Assembly (NCBI GenBank): GCA_024233435.1
Contig: JACKPQ010000001.1
Location: 260,829-324,828, forward strand
DNA from: Chlamydiales bacterium
Lineage (GTDB): Bacteria > Chlamydiota > Chlamydiia > Chlamydiales > JACKPQ01
Direction: 5' to 3'
DNA length: 64,000 bases
Shown: positions 163 through 45,601 of the stretch, in pieces
Position numbering within the stretch: the stretch's first letter is position 1
Layout of the letters: each line of letters opens with the position of its first letter
Made by a program: the position numbers and the translations under genes
Notes under the pieces: model-generated
What the model was told of the DNA's origin: nothing
Database searches by the model: none
What the model saw: the letters and a program-made list of their open reading frames with translations, nothing else

Positions 163-1023
163 ATGAACAAGAAGATCCGAATAGCACTGGGTATTTGCCT
201 TTTCATTACAGTTGTTTCTCTTCCTGTTTTTTTTATTGCAACACACAATGTCGATGTGCTCGACCCCAAGGGGATTATTGCGGATCAGCAGCGGCATCTT
301 TTGATCGTTGCTTCATCGCTTATGCTAGTTGTTGTGATTCCCACATTTTTTATGCTGTTGTTTTTTGCTTGGAAGTACCGCGAGCATAAAGGATCTAAAT
401 ACTCTCCTGATTGGGACTTTAATTTTTTAGCAGAGATTTGTTGGTGGGGTGTTCCTTTTGTCATTATCGTGGTTTTGAGCATCATCACATTTCAAACAAG
501 TCACTCCTTAAATCCTTTTAAGCCTTTAGAAAGCGATAAAAAGCCCATCGAGATTCAAGTGATCGCTCTACAATGGAAATGGCTTTTTATTTATCCTGAG
601 CAAGGGATTGCAACGGTTAACTATATCGAATTTCCCAAAGATACGCCGGTCAATTTCGAAATCACTGCCGATGCTCCGATGAATTCATTTTGGATTCCTC
701 AGCTTGGTGGTCAGATTTACGCGATGCCGGCAATGCGCTCGAAGCTGCACTTGATGGCAGATGAGCTGGGTTCCTATACGGGTGTTTCAGCTAATATTAG
801 TGGGTCAGGTTTTGCTGGAATGAAATTTACGGCTAAGGCCACGACTGATCAAGAATTTCAAAACTGGGTTTCTCAAGTGCGTGGATCGTCAAAAGCCTTG
901 GGGATGATGGAGTATGAAAATCTTGTGTTGCCAACAGAATATGTCCCCGTTTCTTACTATAGATTGCAAAAATACGATCTGTTCGATGCGGTTATCATGA
1001 AATACAAAATGCCAAGCAAGTGA
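163..1023 (+). CDS. cyoA: Quinol oxidase (bo3-type) subunit II
   Basis: Two N-terminal TM helices. The cupredoxin-domain segment [58 protein letters not shown] is nearly collinear with E. coli CyoA and lacks the CuA Cys/His ligands. First gene of the cyoABCD order. Confidence 0.9.
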
Positions 1024-1030
1024 GATTGAG

Positions 1031-2986
1031 ATGTTAGGAAGATTAACCCTTGAAGCCTTTAAACATGACTGGATTGAATATTTAGCAGGCGTGTCGATGT
1101 TTTTAGGAGCACTCGTTGCGGTGATCCTGATCACGAAATATAAAAAATGGGGCTATCTGTGGAGAGAGTGGTTCACAACAGTTGATCATAAAAAAATTGG
1201 GATCATGTACATCGTAGCTTCTGCAATCATGCTTGCCAAGGGACTCGTTGATGGTTTGATGATGAGAGCGCAGCTAGCTTTTGCTGTCGGTGATTCAATG
1301 GGGTATTTGGGAGCTGATCATTACCAGCAGATCTTTACAGCCCATGGCGTTACTATGATTTTTTTCGTGGGAATGGGCTTGATGTTTGGAATTATTAATT
1401 TGATTGTTCCTCTGCAAATAGGCGCACGCGATGTTGCATTTCCATTTTTAAACTCTCTTAGTTTCTGGTTATTTTCTTCAGGAGCGCTCTTTATTTTGGT
1501 CTCGCTAGTTGTGGGCGTCTATGCAGGTACAGGCTGGACGGCATATCCTCCCTTATCAGGAGCTGCCTATAATCCTGGAGTTGGCGTTGATTATTGGATC
1601 TGGAGCATCCAGATATCAGGAGTTGGAAGTTTGCTCTCCGGCGTGAATTTTTTAGCGACGATTGTCAAGATGCGCACCAAGGGAATGGACATGATGAAAA
1701 TGCCTATCTTTACTTGGACAGCGCTTGCAACGGTTATTTTAGTCGTATTCGCTTTTCCTATTTTAACTGCAAACTTAGCAATGCTTACCACCGACCGCAT
1801 GCTGGACACGCATATTTTCACAGCGGGTCATGGTGGTAATCCCATGATGTATATCAATTTATTTTGGGCATGGGGTCATCCTGAGGTTTACATCCTAGTC
1901 TTGCCAGCGTTTGGTATTTTTTCTGAAGTTGTCCCTGTGTTTTCTAAGAAGAGATTATTTGGATATACAACAATGGTATGGGCAACCATTGGAATCACTG
2001 TGCTTTCGTTTTTGGTCTGGTTGCATCATTTTTTCACAATGGGCGCTGGGGCCAATGTCAATGCGTTTTTTGGGATCATGACAATGATCATTGCTGTTCC
2101 AACAGGCGTGAAAGTTTTCAACTGGCTTTTCACCATGTGCCGAGGGCGCGTTACCTTTACAACACCCATGCTTTGGTTTATGGGTTTTATCTTTATTTTC
2201 GTGACAGGCGGCATGACAGGAGTATTGCTTTCAATTCCTGCATTCGACTTCCAAGCGCACAATAGCCTGTTTTTGATCGCCCACTTCCATTCGACAATTA
2301 TCGGGGGTGTGGTCTTTGGTTTCTTTGCTGGCTATACCTACTGGTTTCCAAAATTTACCGGATTTAAGCTCAACGAAAAGTTGGGGAAATATGCCTTTTG
2401 GTGTTGGTTTATCGGGTTTATTGTGGCATTCATGCCGCTGTATTTACTCGGGCTTATGGGAGCTACAAGGCGGCTTAATCATTACACCGAGACAAGCTGG
2501 CAGCCAATCTTTGTCTTTGCGGCCATTGGCGCGCTTATTATCGCAGCAGGCGTAGGATTTCAAGGGCTTCAGCTCTACCGGAGTATCAAAGATCGCAAGA
2601 ATAATCGCGATACAACAGGAGACCCATGGGATGGGCGCACTTTAGAGTGGTCGACAACCTCGCCGCCACCCTTTTACAATTTTGCCCACCTTCCAGAGGT
2701 GCAAACCCGAGATGCTTGGTGGTCGATGAAGCACTCTAAAAAACAAATATCGGGTGGGCCTTATCACGATATCCATATGCCGAAAAACACCTCGGCAGGA
2801 TTCTACATTGGGGCTTTGAGTTTTGTCTTTGGCTTTGCAATGGTTTGGCACATGTTTTGGCTAGTTTGGCTCTCTTTAGCTGGCATGATAGCCTGCGTGA
2901 TTAAACGTCTCTATGAAAAAGACACAGACTATTATGTGCCCGCCGATGAGGTGAAAAAAATTGAATCTAGGAAACAAACAGCATGA
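1031..2986 (+). CDS. cyoB: Heme-copper quinol oxidase subunit I
   Basis: 651 aa polytopic protein with [18 protein letters not shown] and [11 protein letters not shown] heme/CuB ligand motifs. Confidence 0.95.
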
Positions 2987-3558
2987 CACACGAGCATCAT
3001 GATCCTTATGAGAAAACCATTTTTGGATTTTGGGTATATCTGCTGACAGATTTTATCATGTTCGCAACACTATTTGCTGTCTACGCGGTTTTACGCGACA
3101 GCACATTTGGCGGCCCAGGAGCAAAAGATCTGTTTAATCTACCTCTTGTTTTAGTTCAAACGCTACTCCTGTTGGGGTGTAGTTTGACAAGTGGAGTTGC
3201 AAGTGTTTATGCTCACCGGGGTAACAAAAATGGCACTTTGCTCTACTTTGCTATCACCTTTGCGTTAGGCTTTATTTTTCTATGGATGGGACTTGCTGAT
3301 TTTCATCGCTTGATTGCAATGGATGCAAGTTGGAAAGTCAGTGGCTTTCTCTCCGGATATTTCTCGCTAGTTGGAACGCACACAGTCCATATTCTAATTG
3401 GACTTGCCTGGATTGTTGTTCTGCTGCTACCCGTCATCAAACAAGGGCTAAATGATGTACACATTAAGCGGATTACATGCCTTCGGATGTTTTGGCAATT
3501 TATGAACATCATTTGGATCTTTATTTATACGATTGTCTACTTAGTGGGGGTGAACTGA
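2983..3558 (+). CDS. cyoC: Quinol oxidase subunit III
   Basis: 191 aa, 5 TM. ATGA overlap with cyoB. Size, position and hydrophobic profile fit CyoC. Confidence 0.85.
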
Positions 3559-3559
3559 T

Positions 3560-3877
3560 ATGGACCAGAAAAATAATGTGTGGAACACAAGCTTTAAGCC
3601 GCTTTTTATAGGGTTTGGATTATCACTGGTTTTAGTTTTATTCGTTTATGGTGTCGTCGTTTACGATTTCTTGGAAACGAGTTTAGAATTTCCCGCAATC
3701 ATCTTTTTAGGGGCTTTGCAAGCAGTCCTACAACTGATCTATTTCTTCCATGTTGGGCTTGAATCAAACTCCAAATGGAACCTTCTGATGCTGCTATTTA
3801 TGATCTTTGTCGTATTCATCATCGTAGGAGGATCCATCTGGATCATGTACAACTTAAACTACGACCTTATGATCTAA
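3560..3877 (+). CDS. cyoD: Quinol oxidase subunit IV
   Basis: 105 aa, 3 TM, starting 1 nt after the cyoC stop. Called from operon position. Confidence 0.7.
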   Translation: MDQKNNVWNTSFKPLFIGFGLSLVLVLFVYGVVVYDFLETSLEFPAIIFLGALQAVLQLIYFFHVGLESNSKWNLLMLLFMIFVVFIIVGGSIWIMYNLNYDLMI

Positions 3878-3902
3878 CCGAACTCCATGAAATGAAGTTC
3901 GG
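3878..3902. terminator. Hairpin between convergent cyoD and the Cys-rich lipoprotein gene
   Basis: ccgaact (3878-3884) pairs with agttcgg (3896-3902), with an 11-nt loop. It starts directly after the cyoD TAA. No clear U-tract on either strand. Confidence 0.3.
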
Positions 3903-3918
3903 ATCAAAACTCTGGCCT

Positions 3919-4152
3919 TTAGTCTTTTGGTGCTGGACAGGTCTGTTTCGGCTCTGAGCATGTCTTTTTTGGTGCTGGACATGTAGGCGTCTCATTCTTC
4001 TTGCAGGCACAGCCTTTGCTGCAGCCGCATACTTCTTTGCATACGCACTCTATCTTATTGCAGTCTTCTTTAACTTCTTTTTCAACTTTAGCACACCCAA
4101 ACAAACAGGTGCACAATGCTATGAAAGCAATTTTTTTCTTGCATTGAATCAT
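3919..4152 (-). CDS. Small cysteine-rich lipoprotein (metallothionein-like / OmcA-like)
   Basis: ATG at 4152 with GGAGGA 6 nt upstream. Signal peptide MIQCKKKIAFIALCTCLFG followed by a lipobox Cys. The mature 58 aa carry 11 Cys in the pattern C-x4-CxC-x3-CxC-x3-CxC, followed by three TC(P/S)(A/E)PK repeats. Confidence 0.6.
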   Translation of the reverse strand: MIQCKKKIAFIALCTCLFGCAKVEKEVKEDCNKIECVCKEVCGCSKGCACKKNETPTCPAPKKTCSEPKQTCPAPKD

Positions 4153-4174
4153 AATGTTCCTCCATCTTGAACAT

Positions 4175-5047
4175 ATGGAAAAAGCAATAAATATACAACT
4201 GTTTCGCACATATTTTCAACTCGCAAAACCGGGGATTGTCTTTGGAAATGCAATGACAGCTGCCGGAGGTTTCTTTCTAGCAGCCCGGGGCAGCATTGAT
4301 GTGGTGACTCTGTTTGGAGCATTGATCGGACTTTGCTTTATTATGGGTTCTGGTTGTGTCTTTAACAATTACTTTGATCGAGCCCTTGATAAGCAGATGA
4401 AGCGCACTCAAATGCGCGCGCTTGTCAAAGGACTTGTAACGGTAAAGCAGAGTATTATCTACGCTCTTATCCTGCTTGCACTAGGCATCCTTTTTCTTGT
4501 GAGTTTTACCAATCCGCTAGCCCTAGGCATTGCCTTAGTTGGCTTTGTGATGTATGTGGTTGTCTATACTTATCTCAAGTATCGTACAAGGCACGCAACT
4601 TTAATAGGAAGCATTGCAGGAGCTGTCCCGCCCTTAGTTGGTTATTGCGCAGTCAAAGGCTCACTAGATCAGGCAGGGCTTCTTATTTTTACCATCATGG
4701 TGCTGTGGCAGATGCCTCATTTTTTTGCGATCTCTATCTACCGGCTAAAAGAATATACAAAAGCTAAGATTCCGTTGCTGCCCGTTGTCAAGGGAGTTAA
4801 AGCTACGAAAATCCAAATGGTGATCTACGCGGTTGCATTTTGTATCGCCATGGCGATGTTATCCGTATTGGGATATACAAATAGGCTCTATCTGATTGGA
4901 ACTTCATTTGTTGCCCTCTATTGGCTTTTTCTTTGTGTGCAAGGCTTTAAATGCGCAAATGATGTCAAGTGGGCTCGCAAAGTCTTTGGCTACTCGCTAG
5001 TTGTCGTTATGACATTTAGTTTAATGATCCCTTTTTGTTTAAGTTAA
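4175..5047 (+). CDS. cyoE: Protoheme IX farnesyltransferase (heme O synthase)
   Basis: UbiA-family polytopic protein with NNYFDRALDKQMKRTQMRAL (the Asp-rich prenyltransferase motif). The ORF opens at 4154. I prefer ATG 4175 but the start is uncertain. Confidence 0.9.
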   Translation: MEKAINIQLFRTYFQLAKPGIVFGNAMTAAGGFFLAARGSIDVVTLFGALIGLCFIMGSGCVFNNYFDRALDKQMKRTQMRALVKGLVTVKQSIIYALILLALGILFLVSFTNPLALGIALVGFVMYVVVYTYLKYRTRHATLIGSIAGAVPPLVGYCAVKGSLDQAGLLIFTIMVLWQMPHFFAISIYRLKEYTKAKIPLLPVVKGVKATKIQMVIYAVAFCIAMAMLSVLGYTNRLYLIGTSFVALYWLFLCVQGFKCANDVKWARKVFGYSLVVVMTFSLMIPFCLS

Positions 5048-5061
5048 TTCCAGGAGGCTGC

Positions 5062-5568
5062 ATGAGCGAAGTAAAATTCAAAGGTAAACCGACAAGGATT
5101 GTCGAGGGTTTTCCAAACATTGGAGATCAAGCCAAAGACTTTGAGCTTTTAAGGCCCGATTTAAGCACTGCTGGACTTAAAGATTTTGATGGCAAGATCA
5201 AACTGCTCAATATTTTTGTGAGTTTGGATACACCGGTCTGTGCAAAATCAATAACAGCCTTTGACACTGCCTCCAAAGCTTTTATGGATCTCATTGTACT
5301 GAACATTAGTATGGATTTGCCGTTTGCAGCTTCCCGCTTTTGCATATCATCACAGATGGAGCAAGCCGTTACGTTATCTACATTTCGTAGCGCGTTTCCT
5401 GATGACTATGGAGTGAGAATCGCTGATGGTCCGCTAAAAGGGCTCTGTGCTCGAGCGATCATCCTTTTAGGAAAGGATAACCGTGTGATCTACACCGAGC
5501 TTGTCGAAGAGATCACACAAGAGCCAAACTACGGCGCTGTTTTAGACGCAATCAAGCAGGTGGTCTAA
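5062..5568 (+). CDS. tpx: Thiol peroxidase (atypical 2-Cys peroxiredoxin)
   Basis: SLDTPVCAKS peroxidatic-Cys motif and Tpx-like length. AGGAGG precedes ATG 5062. Confidence 0.9.
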   Translation: MSEVKFKGKPTRIVEGFPNIGDQAKDFELLRPDLSTAGLKDFDGKIKLLNIFVSLDTPVCAKSITAFDTASKAFMDLIVLNISMDLPFAASRFCISSQMEQAVTLSTFRSAFPDDYGVRIADGPLKGLCARAIILLGKDNRVIYTELVEEITQEPNYGAVLDAIKQVV

Positions 5569-6971: not shown

Positions 6972-7433
6972 CTAGCAGTTGGAAATATGTCTAGCTGTTG
7001 AAGTGTTAGGCTGATCAAACTCATTAAGGATTAGAGTGTTATCATGACGTTCGATAGAGGGATCAATGTTAATAGAGGGATCAATGTTAACAGAAGAATC
7101 GCTATTGCTTGGGATAGGAGAGTTTGCAAAATGAAGAAACTGAGCTCCTAAGAGGTTTATAGCATGAGTTTGCTCTATTGAGGCCAGCTTATCATGCATT
7201 AGCACGACGGCAATGACCTCTTGATCAGAGAGACTGAGCTGTTCAGAGCGAGTCTGGCGATGGTGGCTAGTAATATTTACAGCAAAACAGAGGACCATGT
7301 TTGTGGTTCTGTCCTGTACCGAAAATCCCTCTACTGCTTGGCTTGGAGTTTCTAGATCTCTAAGAAGTGCCTGAGCAAGTGTAATCGGATTTTCAGGAGC
7401 AAGGGGTTGATTAACTTGTAAGTATCTTGGCAT
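6972..7433 (-). CDS. Hypothetical protein, 153 aa, acidic
   Basis: ORF only. ATG start 6 nt after the stop of the upstream ORF. Contains the tandem peptide SVNIDPSINIDPSI. No recognised motif. Confidence 0.5.
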   Translation of the reverse strand: MPRYLQVNQPLAPENPITLAQALLRDLETPSQAVEGFSVQDRTTNMVLCFAVNITSHHRQTRSEQLSLSDQEVIAVVLMHDKLASIEQTHAINLLGAQFLHFANSPIPSNSDSSVNIDPSINIDPSIERHDNTLILNEFDQPNTSTARHISNC

Positions 7434-7439
7434 AAAACT

Positions 7440-7832
7440 TTAGCGTGCAATTGTTTGTTGTGAATCATTAGTTGTAGATGGTGCATATTCAAGTTGTCGA
7501 CAAGCGGCCTCAAAATCACATAGATGTTTAGGAAACTTATCTTGGAGTGCCCGAGCAACGATCTTAATGGATTCGCAATCCTCAACACTAAGCTTTGGTT
7601 GTTGTGAGCTAGGCTTTGGTTGTTGTGGGCTAGATGGTATTATTCTTTCTGAATAAAAGTCCTTGCGGCCCTTTCTTGTAGCTATGAAAGTGATGAAACT
7701 AGTGGCGTATAAGCTTACAGTCTTATCTGTGGCTTGCGTCCTAATAGCTTTCTCCAAGTAATTTGCAAAAGCTAGGGGGCCAGCTCTTTCAGCTAGAAAG
7801 CGAGTGCTTAATCGATCAATATTAGCTGCCAT
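7440..7832 (-). CDS. Hypothetical protein, 130 aa
   Basis: ORF only. Contains the tandem peptide SSPQQPKP/SSQQPKL. Preceded by a sigma70-like promoter. Confidence 0.5.
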   Translation of the reverse strand: MAANIDRLSTRFLAERAGPLAFANYLEKAIRTQATDKTVSLYATSFITFIATRKGRKDFYSERIIPSSPQQPKPSSQQPKLSVEDCESIKIVARALQDKFPKHLCDFEAACRQLEYAPSTTNDSQQTIAR

Positions 7833-41908: not shown

Positions 41909-43309
41909 ATGAACATAGTTAAATCCAAGCGCTCGATCAGAATCTTTACCCTGACAATGATTAACATCGCTGCTACTTGCAGCATTCAGAATTGGCCTTT
42001 GACGGCCGAGTACGGCTTTTCTTCCCTATTTTTCTCTTTGCTCAGCGCTTTGGTTTTCTTTATTCCTGTCTCTTTGGTGTCTGCAGAGTTGGCTACAGGC
42101 TGGCCAGAGCGTGGAGGCGTTTTCACATGGGTCAAAGAAGCTATGGGCCACAGGATGGGGTTTTTAGCGGTTTGGCTTCAATGGGCAGAAAACGTTATCT
42201 GGTACCCGACTATTTTATCCTTTATCGGGGCTGCTATTGCTTATAGCTTTAATCCTGCACTAGCAAACAACAATGTCTATATGGGAATTGTGATTATCGC
42301 AGCTTTTTGGGGTGCTACGCTGATGAATTTATGCGGCATGAAAATATCGGGGCTTATTAGCTCTGTTGGTGTTATTGTTGGTACGATCATCCCAGGGGCG
42401 CTTATTATTTGCTTAGGACTCATATGGCTATTTGGAAGCCAACCCCTGCAAATCGAGCTGAGCTGGGATGCGCTTTTACCAGATTTAAGCTCTCCCTATC
42501 AGCTTTCTTTGCTAGTGGGAGTATTAACTGGTTTTACTGGGATGGAAATGTCCGCTGTGCATGCCCGTGATGTCATCAACCCCCAGAAAAATTATCCACG
42601 AGCGATTTTCCTATCAGCACTCATTGTTCTCTTTTTGTTTGTTTTAGGAACACTTTCTATTGCATTTGTTATTCCACAGAAGGAAATCAGCCTTGTTGGA
42701 GGGGCGCTGGAGGCGCTTTCCCATTTTATGCGTCGTTATGGACTTGGCTCATCGGTTCCCATTCTAGCTATTCTTGTTGCTTTTGGAGCGTTAGGCAGTA
42801 TGAGCACTTGGGCAGCGGGGCCAATTAAAGGGCTATTGGCAGCTGCGCAAAGCGGGGAATTCCCTCCGATTTTGCACCGTGTTAATAAAAATGACATGCC
42901 AGTAGCGATGATGATTATGCAAGGCGTCATCGTGTCTCTTTTGTCACTTGTTTTTGTCTTGATGCGCGATGTCAATATTTCATTTTGGATTCTTTTGGTT
43001 TTGATGTCGCAGCTGTATTTGATTATGTATGTGTTGATGTTTGTTGCAGCGATTATTTTGCGCTACAAAAGGGCGAATGTGCAACGGGCTTATACAATAC
43101 CTGGAGGGCGGCTTGGCATGTGGTTTGTCGCAGGTGTAGGGGCTTTAGGTTCACTAGCTGCGCTGATCATTAGCTTTTTTCCTCCACGTCAGATCAATAC
43201 AGGTAATGTTCTTTTCTATGAGCTATTTTTGCTGATTGGCATCGTGACGGTCTGCACGATACCGTTTGTGATTCTGCTCTTTAAGAAACCCAGTTGGGAC
43301 AAACCCTAG
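41909..43309 (+). CDS. gadC: APC-family glutamate:GABA antiporter-like permease
   Basis: 12 TM. Shares GGVFTWV, TIPGG and SFFPP segments and overall collinearity with E. coli GadC as I recall it. Lacks the ~35-aa C-terminal plug. Confidence 0.8.
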   Translation: MNIVKSKRSIRIFTLTMINIAATCSIQNWPLTAEYGFSSLFFSLLSALVFFIPVSLVSAELATGWPERGGVFTWVKEAMGHRMGFLAVWLQWAENVIWYPTILSFIGAAIAYSFNPALANNNVYMGIVIIAAFWGATLMNLCGMKISGLISSVGVIVGTIIPGALIICLGLIWLFGSQPLQIELSWDALLPDLSSPYQLSLLVGVLTGFTGMEMSAVHARDVINPQKNYPRAIFLSALIVLFLFVLGTLSIAFVIPQKEISLVGGALEALSHFMRRYGLGSSVPILAILVAFGALGSMSTWAAGPIKGLLAAAQSGEFPPILHRVNKNDMPVAMMIMQGVIVSLLSLVFVLMRDVNISFWILLVLMSQLYLIMYVLMFVAAIILRYKRANVQRAYTIPGGRLGMWFVAGVGALGSLAALIISFFPPRQINTGNVLFYELFLLIGIVTVCTIPFVILLFKKPSWDKP

Positions 43310-43547
43310 CGCGTGGCATTGGCTTTGAATATAGCTGTTTTATGTCATTTATAATTAGGCGTATATAGATTTATAACTCATAAATGAGCTATAACATGAG
43401 TTATATAAGAGAGGTTTATGCATCATGAATTGGAATTGGAAATTACCTAGTTAGCCAACTTTTTGCTATGGTCCATCCAAGGTTGCCGATTTAGAAAAGC
43501 AATTTCATATGGAAATTGGCACCACTTTTGCATATCTCAAAATCAGC

Positions 43548-44177
43548 TCAATCTAGAATGCTGACAGCTCCTGTGTGCATGTCGTAGTATCCTGCGTAGA
43601 CTTTGAGGCTGCCTTTTGATACAAGGTTTGCAATCGCCTTTGTTTTTAAGAGGGTATTTTTCATGTTGATGGCGTTTGTTTTAATGGCTGCTTCTAAAAG
43701 TGGGCGGGAGCGTTCTTTTTCGACTTTTTGCACGGCAGGCTCTATGAGTTTTGCAATTGTGGGGATGGTTTCTGTTGTATCTTTGATCACAGCATCTACT
43801 GCGCCGCAGTTTTCGTGTCCAAGGACAAGAATGATCGATGAGTGCAAGTGAAGAGCTGAGTAGTTAATGCTTTGTAGTTCAATAGGGCCTATCACATTGC
43901 CGGCAACGCGTACGACGAACAGATCGCCAATTCCTTGGTCAAAAATAATTTCTGGAGCAACGCGGGAGTCAGCGCAGCTGACGATAATGGCAAAGGGCTC
44001 TTGGCTAGCTGTGAGTGCTTGGCGGCTTTCAGCTGTTCGATTGGGATGCTCGAGAGAGTCTTGGACATAGCGTTTATTCCCTTCCATTAACTGCTCTAAT
44101 GGAGTCTGTGCGAATAATCCAAAACTAACTAATCCAATAAGAATTATCCTCATATTTTTTTTAATAATTATTTTCAT
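43548..44177 (-). CDS. Beta-class carbonic anhydrase with a signal peptide
   Basis: CADSRV and HENCGAV zinc-ligand motifs. N-terminus MKIIIKKNMRIILIGLVSFGLFAQ. ATG 44177 (the ORF opens at TTG 44189). Confidence 0.85.
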   Translation of the reverse strand: MKIIIKKNMRIILIGLVSFGLFAQTPLEQLMEGNKRYVQDSLEHPNRTAESRQALTASQEPFAIIVSCADSRVAPEIIFDQGIGDLFVVRVAGNVIGPIELQSINYSALHLHSSIILVLGHENCGAVDAVIKDTTETIPTIAKLIEPAVQKVEKERSRPLLEAAIKTNAINMKNTLLKTKAIANLVSKGSLKVYAGYYDMHTGAVSILD

Positions 44178-44218
44178 ATAAATTGTCAAATTGTCTATGA
44201 ATGGAATAAAGGGGTTTT

Positions 44219-45601
44219 ATGCAGAAAAAAGATGATTCAGATAAAGGGCATGCCAGTACATATAGCTCTCGTTATTTTACCAAAGACATTCCAAAGCATA
44301 AAATGCCTGTGCAGAGCATGCCTGCTAATGCAGTCTATCAATTGATTCATGACGAGTTGAATATGGATTGTAATCCAGCTCTTAATTTGGCAAGCTTTTG
44401 CACGACGTGGATGGAGCCAGAAGCGCAGCAAATTTATAAGGAAAATGTTCACAAAAATTTTATCGATCACGACCAGTATCCTCAAACAGAGGTGATTCAT
44501 AAGCGGTGCATCAATATGCTTGCTCATTTGTTTAATGCCCCAGATGATTGCAAAACGATTGGGTCTGCAACGATTGGTTCATCAGAGGCGATTATGCTTG
44601 CTCTTTTAGGCCACAAATGGACCTGGAAAAAGCGGCGCGAGCAAGAGGGAAAAGCAACGGACAAGCCTAACATTATTTTTGGTGCAGATGTTCATATTTG
44701 TTGGGATAAGTTTGCCAAGTATTTTGATGTCGAAATGAGAATTATTCCGATGGAGAAAGATTGCTATGTCATTTCAGCAGAAAAGGTGAAACCTCTCATT
44801 GATGAAAATACAATTTGTGTAGGAGCAATTCTTGGAACAACGTTTACTGGGCAGGCTGATCCTATTGAAGAGATCAATAACTTGCTGTTAAAAGTGAAAA
44901 AAGAAAAAGGCTGGGATATTCCCGTTCATGTTGACGGTGCAAGTGGAGGCTTTGTCACTCCGTTTACACAACCAGATCTTCTTTGGGATTTCCGCCTTGA
45001 GCAGGTCAAATCCATCAATGTTTCTGGTCATAAATTTGGTCTGGTTTATCCTGGGCTTGGCTGGGTTTTATGGAAAGATGAAAAGGATTTTCCAGAGGAT
45101 TTGATTTTTCATGTTAATTACCTGGGTGGTTCGATGCCGACATACACGCTCAATTTTTCTCGCAATAGCGTTGGAATATATGGGCAGTATTACAATTTCT
45201 TGCGCCTTGGAAAAGAAGGGTATACCCGCATCATGAACAACTGTCTGGAAAACGCTCAGTACTTAGCAAAGAAGCTTTCGGAATTGAAAGAGTTTCACAT
45301 GATCAACGAAAGCCAAATGCTGCCCATTGTAGCTATCCGTTTGACTGACGATGTAAAAAATTACACAGTTTTTGATCTTTCTCATAAGTTGCGTGAGCGA
45401 GGATGGGTCATCTCTGCATATACCTTGCCTGCTAATGCTCAAGATACGGCCATCATGCGTATTGTTGTTCGCGAGCATTTAAGCCGTGATATGGTAGAGA
45501 TTCTTTTTGCCGATATCCAAAATGCGATTAAAGCACTTGAAACCGGACAGAAAACAACTGGTAATGGAAGCTCTCCTCGAAAAGGCCAGCATGTTTGTTG
45601 A
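44219..45601 (+). CDS. gadB: Glutamate decarboxylase (PLP-dependent, group II)
   Basis: 460 aa with the PLP-lysine motif SGHKFGLVYPGLGW and N-terminal ...MPANAVYQLIHDELNMDCNPALNLASFCTTWMEPEA, typical of GAD. Confidence 0.9.
   Translation: MQKKDDSDKGHASTYSSRYFTKDIPKHKMPVQSMPANAVYQLIHDELNMDCNPALNLASFCTTWMEPEAQQIYKENVHKNFIDHDQYPQTEVIHKRCINMLAHLFNAPDDCKTIGSATIGSSEAIMLALLGHKWTWKKRREQEGKATDKPNIIFGADVHICWDKFAKYFDVEMRIIPMEKDCYVISAEKVKPLIDENTICVGAILGTTFTGQADPIEEINNLLLKVKKEKGWDIPVHVDGASGGFVTPFTQPDLLWDFRLEQVKSINVSGHKFGLVYPGLGWVLWKDEKDFPEDLIFHVNYLGGSMPTYTLNFSRNSVGIYGQYYNFLRLGKEGYTRIMNNCLENAQYLAKKLSELKEFHMINESQMLPIVAIRLTDDVKNYTVFDLSHKLRERGWVISAYTLPANAQDTAIMRIVVREHLSRDMVEILFADIQNAIKALETGQKTTGNGSSPRKGQHVC

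Follow-up and report, generated by a model that had tools for sequence, protein, structure and literature searches.

A conserved gene for a predicted cysteine-rich lipoprotein antisense to the cyo operon in a Chlamydiales genome

The sequence considered here, referred to as the window, is a 64,000-nucleotide (nt) stretch of DNA from a Chlamydiales bacterium (GenBank assembly GCA_024233435.1, contig JACKPQ010000001.1, positions 260,829 to 324,828 of the forward strand), and the subject is a small cysteine (Cys)-rich lipoprotein gene carried on the minus strand inside its cyo operon. The window opens with the full plus-strand operon of a heme-copper quinol oxidase, in which cyoE follows cyoD after a gap, and the small gene lies in that gap (Table 1). 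Judged by the established ligand motifs for CuA and CuB, the CyoA translation lacks the Cys ligands for CuA and that of CyoB retains HPEVY and the HH pair, so the enzyme is, as read from these translations, a bo3-type quinol oxidase with CuB as its sole copper site. Gene callers place the cyoE start at ATG 4154 (297 amino acids, aa), but ATG 4175 (290 aa) is more probably the start, since the match to the family model sets in at residues 16-19 of the long form and an independent related contig, L001, also starts with MEK. Depending on the choice made, 1 nt (4154) or 22 nt (4175) separates the divergent starts of the small gene and cyoE, which is the range given in the initial annotation. A thiol peroxidase-type Redoxin/AhpC-TSA gene (5035-5568, plus strand) overlaps the end of cyoE and runs in the same direction as the operon; it occupies the same place in an identical Logan contig (L002) and is apparently not in L001. 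Megablast of the first 8 kb of the window against plasmids gave no match.

The 77-aa product of the small gene is identical to GenBank MCP5491641.1, a 'hypothetical protein H7A40_01185' from a Chlamydiales metagenome-assembled genome. The initial annotation had described this minus-strand open reading frame (ORF), its strong Shine-Dalgarno sequence, the lipobox LFG/C and a 58-aa mature part with 11 Cys made up of a CxC core and three TCPAPK-like repeats, and all of these were read in the sequence. The N-terminus runs MIQCKKKIAFIALCTCLFG up to the lipid Cys, with KKK at residues 5-7, a hydrophobic core IAFIALCTCLF and the lipobox L17-F18-G19-C20. It has the charged n-region, hydrophobic core and lipobox ([LVI][ASTVI][GAS]C in the first ~35 residues) of lipoprotein signals, with Phe at -2 being the less common choice. 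A search of the PDB with the family profile matched only lipoproteins of solved structure, in each case over the N-terminal signal peptide, in support of an export signal, and LPAM_1 (PF08139) matched 3 of 18 family members. It is strongly suggested by these features that the product is exported, cut by signal peptidase II and lipid-anchored. The Cys of the mature part are C20, 31, 36, 38, 42, 44, 48, 50, 58, 65 and 72; the 57 residues after the lipid Cys include ten of them (18%) and three CxC motifs, with no Phe, Trp, Tyr or His. The tail repeats trace to a 42-nt tandem duplication (direct repeat 3910-3942 / 3952-3984) and the L001 relative has a single repeat unit. AlphaFold2 with a seven-sequence alignment gave no fold (pLDDT, the predicted local distance difference test, 45), an outcome as expected for an apo-metallothionein and compatible with, though not diagnostic of, a peptide that forms metal-thiolate clusters.

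Table 1. Features of the cyo operon and the antisense small gene in the window.
Feature	Position	Strand	Remarks
cyoA	163-1023	+	Pfam COX2 + COX_ARM
cyoB	1031-2986	+	Pfam COX1, E = 3.7e-150
cyoC	2983-3558	+	Pfam COX3
cyoD	3560-3877	+	Pfam COX4_pro PF03626; TIGR02847 CyoD
cyoE, heme O synthase	4175-5047 (alternative start 4154)	+	NF003348, 347 bits
Cys-rich small lipoprotein, coding sequence, 77 aa	3919-4152 (ATG at 4152, stop codon 3919-3921)	-	ORF reading
Shine-Dalgarno GGAGGA	4158-4163	-	5 nt upstream of ATG; also in L001
Signal peptide, residues 1-19	4096-4152	-	n-region KKK, hydrophobic core, lipobox L-F-G; predicted from sequence
Cys20 codon, predicted lipid-modified first mature residue	4093-4095	-	invariant column in 18-member alignment
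Cys cluster core, residues 31-50, C-x4-CxC-x3-CxC-x3-CxC	4003-4062	-	same spacing in 8 family members
C-terminal tail, three 7-residue Cys-Pro-Lys repeats (TCPAPKK, TCSEPKQ, TCPAPKD)	3922-3984	-	lineage-specific expansion
Sigma-70-like promoter candidate, TTGAAA-18-TATATT	4190-4219	-	in first codons of cyoE; 10/12 matches; tentative
Hairpin, 11-bp arms	3878-3902		between cyoD and small-gene stops; -16.7 kcal/mol on minus strand, z = -2.8

An ORF that is short and without a family match might have arisen by chance in a non-coding spacer, and this explanation is effectively refuted. When the spacer was shuffled 20,000 times an ORF of at least 77 aa appeared in 1.2% of shuffles, and never one with 14 or more Cys; the Cys content of the small ORF is 18%, compared with 1.3% in the long ORFs of the window. 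A relative (P0002, 77% identical) lies in the same place and orientation in L001, and 25 of the 39 nucleotide differences between the two small genes fall at third codon positions of the minus-strand frame. The ratio of nonsynonymous to synonymous differences (pN/pS) was 0.19 for the small gene in this comparison, 0.16 for cyoD and 0.18 for cyoE. Four of the five alternative frames gave values of 1.4-2.0; the fifth (rc1) gave 0.27, but a stop codon interrupts it in both sequences. A second, unrelated pair (L013 and L083) also gave 0.19. Four close variants show no loss of Cys; P0012 and P0013 retain every one, and those of the core cluster are all present in P0002 as well. With conservation extending across distant chlamydiae, the small ORF is a true gene under purifying selection and not a product of chance. 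Because purifying selection matches that on the neighbouring enzymes and even very divergent members keep the Cys and the lipobox, it is the protein that is the selected entity. The view of the initial annotation that this was a genuine metallothionein-like, Cys-rich lipoprotein gene was borne out, with divergent homologues keeping the signal peptide, lipobox and CxC cluster, and its proposed check in relatives found the ORF in frame and under purifying selection.

The diversity of the family was investigated in 80 loci from species-representative genomes, fetched through CyoE (46-55% identical) and most of them labelled Chlamydiota, together with a pattern scan, independent of the family hidden Markov model (HMM), that covered 915 kb of contigs related through CyoE and mostly chlamydial. 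This gave about 26 divergent relatives, every one in a chlamydial-looking contig and with a common build of signal peptide, lipobox, a polar linker of ~10-25 residues and then the CxC cluster. Conservation among them is confined to the initiator Met and to the Cys of the lipobox and the cluster, and mean column identity is 22%. GGAG-like motifs precede the starts of most homologues. Mature parts are 26-57 residues long (95 in the repeat-expanded L004); Cys makes up 13-27% of them (9% in the second, truncated copy of L018), and each has 0-2 aromatics and 0-4 His. A Simkania-like group has the spacing C-x-C-x5-C-x3-C-x-C-x-C. Most members have Ala, Ser, Asn or Thr directly behind the lipid Cys and the Simkania-like ones have Asp, and because of this variation uniform membrane sorting cannot be assumed. 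In L018 (2197-2514, minus strand) a tandem pair of small genes, MKKIVSILLLLAVCVGC...CGCGCSCSSCGCAS and MKTGGCIFILIVTCLGC...CGCGC..., the second with one short Cys cluster only, lies upstream of a cyoE with no preceding cyoD. The homologue in L004 (5590-5925, minus strand) has grown to 111 aa through CKSCPRSGKCTKCE(S/T)KPAPA repeats whose units are CxxC rather than CxC, from which it appears that tails of the Cys-Pro-Lys type seen in the window evolve fast by tandem duplication in this clade. Profile searches returned 7 matches in 5.8 billion proteins and 8 in 1.84 billion representatives, and a metagenome scan with five close members found one locus only, identical to L001. This is a conserved family that was previously almost unrecorded, most members not being called as genes and none having a family model; it has been overlooked because its genes are short and run along an operon spacer on the 'wrong' strand.

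The position of the small gene relative to the cyo genes varied. In ~55 of the 80 loci the cyoD-cyoE gap is <60 nt and the genes abut, whereas gaps of ~190 nt or more almost always contain a minus-strand ORF of the family build (L004, L010, L011, L012, L013, L021, L028, L051, L054, L063, L069 and L077). Long spacers without the gene (L033, L059, L039, L041 and L065) were read in six frames and contained no degraded copy. The family HMM and the pattern scan added members upstream of a cyoE without cyoD (L017, L018) and downstream of cyoE (L019, L082, L032). True members in the 915-kb scan occurred only within ~1.3 kb of cyoE and always on the opposite strand; a pattern match in L044 was dismissed on inspection as a false positive, an off-frame ORF within cyoE. 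No second copy was found in the other 60 kb of the window. That linkage to cyo is not an artefact of collecting loci through cyoE follows from ten members found via the small protein alone (P0001-P0008, P0010 and P0011), all ten of which adjoin cyo genes. P0011 is divergent from cyoA, and P0010 stays beside cyoE despite the insertion of a ParE/Phd module next to cyoD. Four arrangements were seen (in the cyoD-cyoE spacer, upstream of a cyoE that stands alone, downstream of cyoE and divergent from cyoA), and in all contexts examined the small gene and the cyo genes are on opposite strands. As to the question raised by the initial annotation, whether the gene always sits in the cyo operon, it adjoined cyo genes in each context that was examined, with some members outside the cyoD-cyoE spacer. 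In two loci (L032, 6691-7725; L087, 5389-6435) the small gene directly precedes, in the same direction, a gene for a lipoprotein beta-carbonic anhydrase, the pair being convergent with cyoE, and members of this subgroup (P0005, P0007) have 3-4 His.

Phylogenetic analysis of CyoE by neighbour-joining, in which the long star-like branches make the tree indicative only, concentrated the carriers in one half, including Simkania-labelled genomes, where they are mixed with non-carriers. The other half has tight cyoD-cyoE junctions and three members only, all downstream of cyoE. The family is tied to the cyo locus of many environmental chlamydiae and has been found so far only in chlamydial-type contigs. 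The cyoD-cyoE spacer is also a recurrent landing site for extra genes, with a ParE/Phd toxin-antitoxin pair in L089 (4146-4673), a pair resembling HicA/HicB toxin-antitoxin on sequence reading in L065 (5540-6007) and a 264-aa ORF in L077 (5002-5796).

The antisense arrangement was examined in the 13 loci of the cyoD-[small gene]-cyoE type. The stop-to-stop gap between the small gene and cyoD ranged from -41 to +46 nt, with overlap in 7 of the 13 loci, and the start-to-start gap to cyoE was 22-109 nt in 12 of them and 1093 nt in L077, which carries an insertion; where cyoE has no upstream operon the latter gap is 187-194 nt. The small gene converges on cyoD and is head-to-head with cyoE, with hardly any spacer, and gene packing of this kind would make it nearly unavoidable for a cyoD-cyoE transcript to overlap it in antisense. 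No intrinsic terminator was predicted in the region of the window scanned, and no promoter-like site for cyoE was found on the plus strand within 3900-4175. On the simplest reading, transcription from the operon promoter would still reach cyoE by crossing the small gene in antisense, and the small gene would have a promoter of its own within the first codons of cyoE, where a candidate with a score equalled by only 1% of random windows was found. L001 does not keep the -10 element of this candidate, and promoter-like sites ahead of the homologues were not consistently better than random, so that no conserved promoter was recognised among them. The hairpin, which occupies the 41 nt from one convergent stop codon to the other, lacks a U-tract; L001, in which cyoD and the small gene have overlapping stops, does not have it.

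Attempts to place the protein in a described family gave only signal-peptide-type or sub-threshold matches when the window protein and 18 relatives were compared with Pfam and NCBIfam; a search of 3400-4700 against Rfam at E <= 1 returned nothing. Among described metallothionein families the best Pfam match was at E = 8.3 (one member) and the best PDB match was wheat Ec-1 at E = 7.5, although a mammalian metallothionein used as a positive control matched PF00131 at 5.6e-23. The window peptide nevertheless has the composition by which metallothioneins are defined operationally (low mass, at least ~15% Cys in CxC/CxxC, few or no aromatics). The OmcA family PF03503 did not match the window protein at E <= 1 nor any of the 18 members at E <= 10, whereas OmcA of C. 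trachomatis scored 8.7e-38; omcB was not adjacent in the window or the relatives examined, the immediate neighbours being cyo genes. On both counts OmcA identity was rejected, and the analogy with OmcA drawn in the initial annotation does not hold at the level of the family. No Pfam or NCBIfam match was obtained to Cox11, Sco or PCuAC/CtaK domains, while the linkage to heme-copper oxidase or heme O synthase genes by which such chaperones are recognised was present in every context examined. Readings as a type I toxin or as a ribosomally synthesized and post-translationally modified peptide or bacteriocin were dropped in view of the conserved lipobox and Cys array, their sole support being a match to YxzE at E = 0.002 in one member. 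The literature yielded nothing relevant on metallothioneins that are lipoproteins, on Cys-rich proteins linked to cyo in chlamydiae or on transcript maps of Simkania, and no publication on the family was found.

Comparison with known systems places the family closest in composition to the metallothioneins. Like the Cu(I)-thioneins (fungal Neurospora-type, mammalian beta-domain, mycobacterial MymT) its members are tiny, have the CxC-x3-5-CxC-x3-CxC arrangement, almost lack aromatics, have no predicted fold without metal and show modular tandem expansion, and their Cys spacing is one which we take to be that of Cu-thioneins and the mammalian beta-domain. The resemblance is compositional, with no detectable sequence homology, and the small family differs in its signal peptide and lipobox; the known bacterial metallothioneins SmtA and MymT are cytosolic (PMC7558416). 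The copper chaperones of oxidases (Cox11/CtaG, Sco/SenC, PCuAC and the B. subtilis lipoprotein CtaK) share the tethered extracytoplasmic site, the Cys ligands and the linkage to oxidase or heme synthase genes, and in Paracoccus ctaB (heme O synthase) adjoins ctaG (Cox11). They are, however, folded domains (Ig-like, that is immunoglobulin-like, thioredoxin-like or cupredoxin-like) with one or two metal sites, whereas the small family consists of non-homologous poly-Cys peptides of 30-60 residues, encoded on the opposite strand and partnered with a quinol oxidase that is CuB-only. Precedents are known for membrane-tethered extracytoplasmic copper chaperones (CtaK, Cox11, Sco) and for periplasmic Cys-lined Cu(I) storage (Csp1). 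Csp1 of methanotrophs is likewise exported and stores multiple Cu(I) on Cys thiolates outside the cytoplasm, but it is a pre-folded four-helix-bundle tetramer of ~120 residues per chain exported by the twin-arginine (Tat) route, with neither a lipoprotein anchor nor a CxC peptide. OmcA, a 9-kDa Cys-rich lipoprotein of the outer-membrane complex (PMC2811131), is alike only as a small, Cys-rich, chlamydial lipoprotein and has a CC/CxxC pattern in place of the regular CxC spacing. The FeoB-associated Cys-rich membrane protein (PF12669) is also a tiny membrane-anchored peptide with a C-terminal Cys cluster beside a metal-handling system, but its anchor is transmembrane and not a lipobox and it serves iron transport and not an oxidase; one member matched it at E = 0.014, below any threshold. 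In the excludons, cis-antisense pairs of the Listeria type, an opposite gene is similarly embedded in or abuts an operon so that transcripts are forced to overlap; here the gene so embedded codes for a protein under strong selection, and the overlap is read from gene positions. The product would be of a known type, resembling metallothioneins or copper chaperones, but new in where it sits in the cell and in how its gene is arranged.

The interpretation that we favour, and to which we would give an even chance, is that the product is a periplasm-facing, lipid-anchored metal-thiolate protein, probably binding Cu(I), that serves the CuB-only bo3-type oxidase. Signal peptidase II would cleave before Cys20, and the lipid would tether the remaining 58 residues, unstructured and rich in Cys, to the periplasmic side of a membrane. 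The Cys array would most likely fold around a metal-thiolate cluster, since CxC-x3-CxC-x3-CxC without aromatics or a detectable fold is the typical metallothionein pattern. Cu(I) is the best guess for the metal because the family is always beside cyo and has all-Cys ligands in most members, and because the binuclear centre of the oxidase needs both heme O, from cyoE, and one copper, the buried CuB beside heme o3. The peptide might act as a periplasmic Cu(I) buffer or donor in metallation of the oxidase or as a protector against copper around it, and expression of the small gene and of cyo would probably be coupled, since a cyoABCDE transcript would cross the small gene in antisense. The tie to the oxidase proposed in the initial annotation was supported by cyo linkage throughout; its copper binding and delivery we infer from composition and synteny, and a preference for copper, service to the oxidase and an antisense effect of any kind are likewise putative. 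A more specific version, in which a lipid-anchored periplasmic metallothionein is a dedicated Cu(I) donor for CuB and its antisense placement coordinates the supply of copper and heme O reciprocally or conditionally, is on present indications unlikely.

Several observations weigh against the favoured interpretation. There is no sequence match to any metallothionein or copper-chaperone family, and a thiol-rich peptide in the oxidising periplasm could simply form disulfides. The His-bearing subgroup lies upstream of a beta-carbonic anhydrase, a zinc enzyme, so the metal could be Zn, which is the main alternative, or the role could be general. A dedicated assembly factor is more usually co-oriented with its operon, and a promoter for the small gene was recognisable only in the window. 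About 60 of the 80 sampled chlamydial cyo loci have no small gene within 6 kb, from which it is clear that the gene is dispensable for the oxidase. It may be regarded as an accessory and not an essential subunit, perhaps useful in copper scarcity or copper stress inside hosts.

Other explanations accept a real lipoprotein and differ over what it does. That it is a non-metal accessory of the oxidase (an extra lipoprotein subunit, an assembly helper or a sacrificial thiol or redox buffer on the periplasmic face) would account for the strict cyo linkage and fits the thiol peroxidase gene straight after cyoE in the window, and respiratory complexes with lipoprotein subunits are well established. 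It is improbable all the same, for stoichiometric subunits are normally co-transcribed and the small gene is always on the other strand; most chlamydial cyo operons do without it, and the low column identity, with little conserved beyond Cys, argues against a specific protein-protein interface. A structural envelope protein, disulfide-crosslinked in the outer-membrane complex in the manner of OmcA, with the cyo neighbourhood as inherited synteny of no functional meaning, is suggested by the chlamydial source and by the precedent of a Cys-rich lipoprotein in that complex (PMC2811131). The residues that follow the lipid Cys in most members would direct them to the outer membrane by the E. coli rule, and Pro/Lys-rich Cys repeats that grow by tandem duplication are typical of surface proteins. 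Yet the Asp at +2 of the Simkania-like members is an inner-membrane retention signal, mature parts of just 26-57 residues have a regular metallothionein-type CxC spacing, and the genes are always beside cyo, in four arrangements, and never beside omcB; taken with the failure of PF03503 against its control, this makes an envelope role improbable.

Two further readings are likewise improbable. A periplasmic buffer for Zn(II) or soft metals in general, for example one supplying an exported beta-carbonic anhydrase and specific to neither copper nor the oxidase, draws on L032 and L087, where the small gene with its 3-4 His leads the lipoprotein enzyme, on the Pro_CA gene found one or two genes past cyoE in Simkania-like loci and on the signal-peptide beta-carbonic anhydrase encoded in the window genome. 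However, in L032 and L087 the small gene and carbonic anhydrase themselves adjoin cyoE, in the window the enzyme is 40 kb away while the small gene is still in the cyo operon, and the all-Cys, His-free clusters of most members favour Cu(I). The remaining reading, that selection mainly maintains an excludon-like antisense arrangement which would uncouple heme O synthase from cyoABCD and that the peptide is secondary, is compatible with the oxidase-serving metal-thiolate protein and not exclusive of it. Transcribing the small gene would, on this reading, disturb the cyoD-cyoE portion of the operon mRNA or cause it to be processed. The opposite strand of all members, packing so tight that transcripts must overlap, the missing plus-strand cyoE promoter-like site and a hairpin that is not conserved, with no terminator predicted, are all consistent with it. 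Against it are purifying selection on the peptide as strong as that on the neighbouring enzymes, the conservation of Cys and lipobox in very divergent members and the members downstream of cyoE or divergent from cyoA, which have no operon-internal overlap.

The assembly of CuB has been described in recent literature as 'less clear', and the B. subtilis quinol oxidase must be served by something other than CtaG (PMC13344008). Insertion of CuB into quinol oxidases, enzymes without CuA and with operons without Cox11/Sco-type genes, is treated as unresolved (PMC13344008, PMC7558416). A poly-Cys lipoprotein that is always linked to cyo offers a concrete, testable candidate for the copper supply of CuB, in the form of a peptide short enough for synthesis. 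If the metal-thiolate interpretation is true, metallothionein-like proteins reach the bacterial cell envelope; a lipid-anchored periplasmic class has not been described in bacteria. The obligatory antisense overlap would also provide a natural system for operon-internal convergent transcription in chlamydiae.

Elsewhere in the window two adjacent ORFs of 153 and 130 aa (6972-7832, minus strand) have no Pfam match and contain short internal repeats (NIDPSINIDPSI; SSPQQPKPSSQQPK); they could be lineage-specific secreted or effector proteins. A cluster at 41909-45601 comprising an amino-acid permease, the signal-peptide beta-carbonic anhydrase (43548-44189, minus strand) and a pyridoxal phosphate-dependent amino-acid decarboxylase resembles an acid-resistance or pH-homeostasis module. 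Genes with a eukaryote-type Ser/Thr protein kinase domain (18071-19480, minus strand) and a protein-tyrosine phosphatase domain (45659-46663, plus strand) are also present, both typical host-interaction or signalling genes of chlamydiae.

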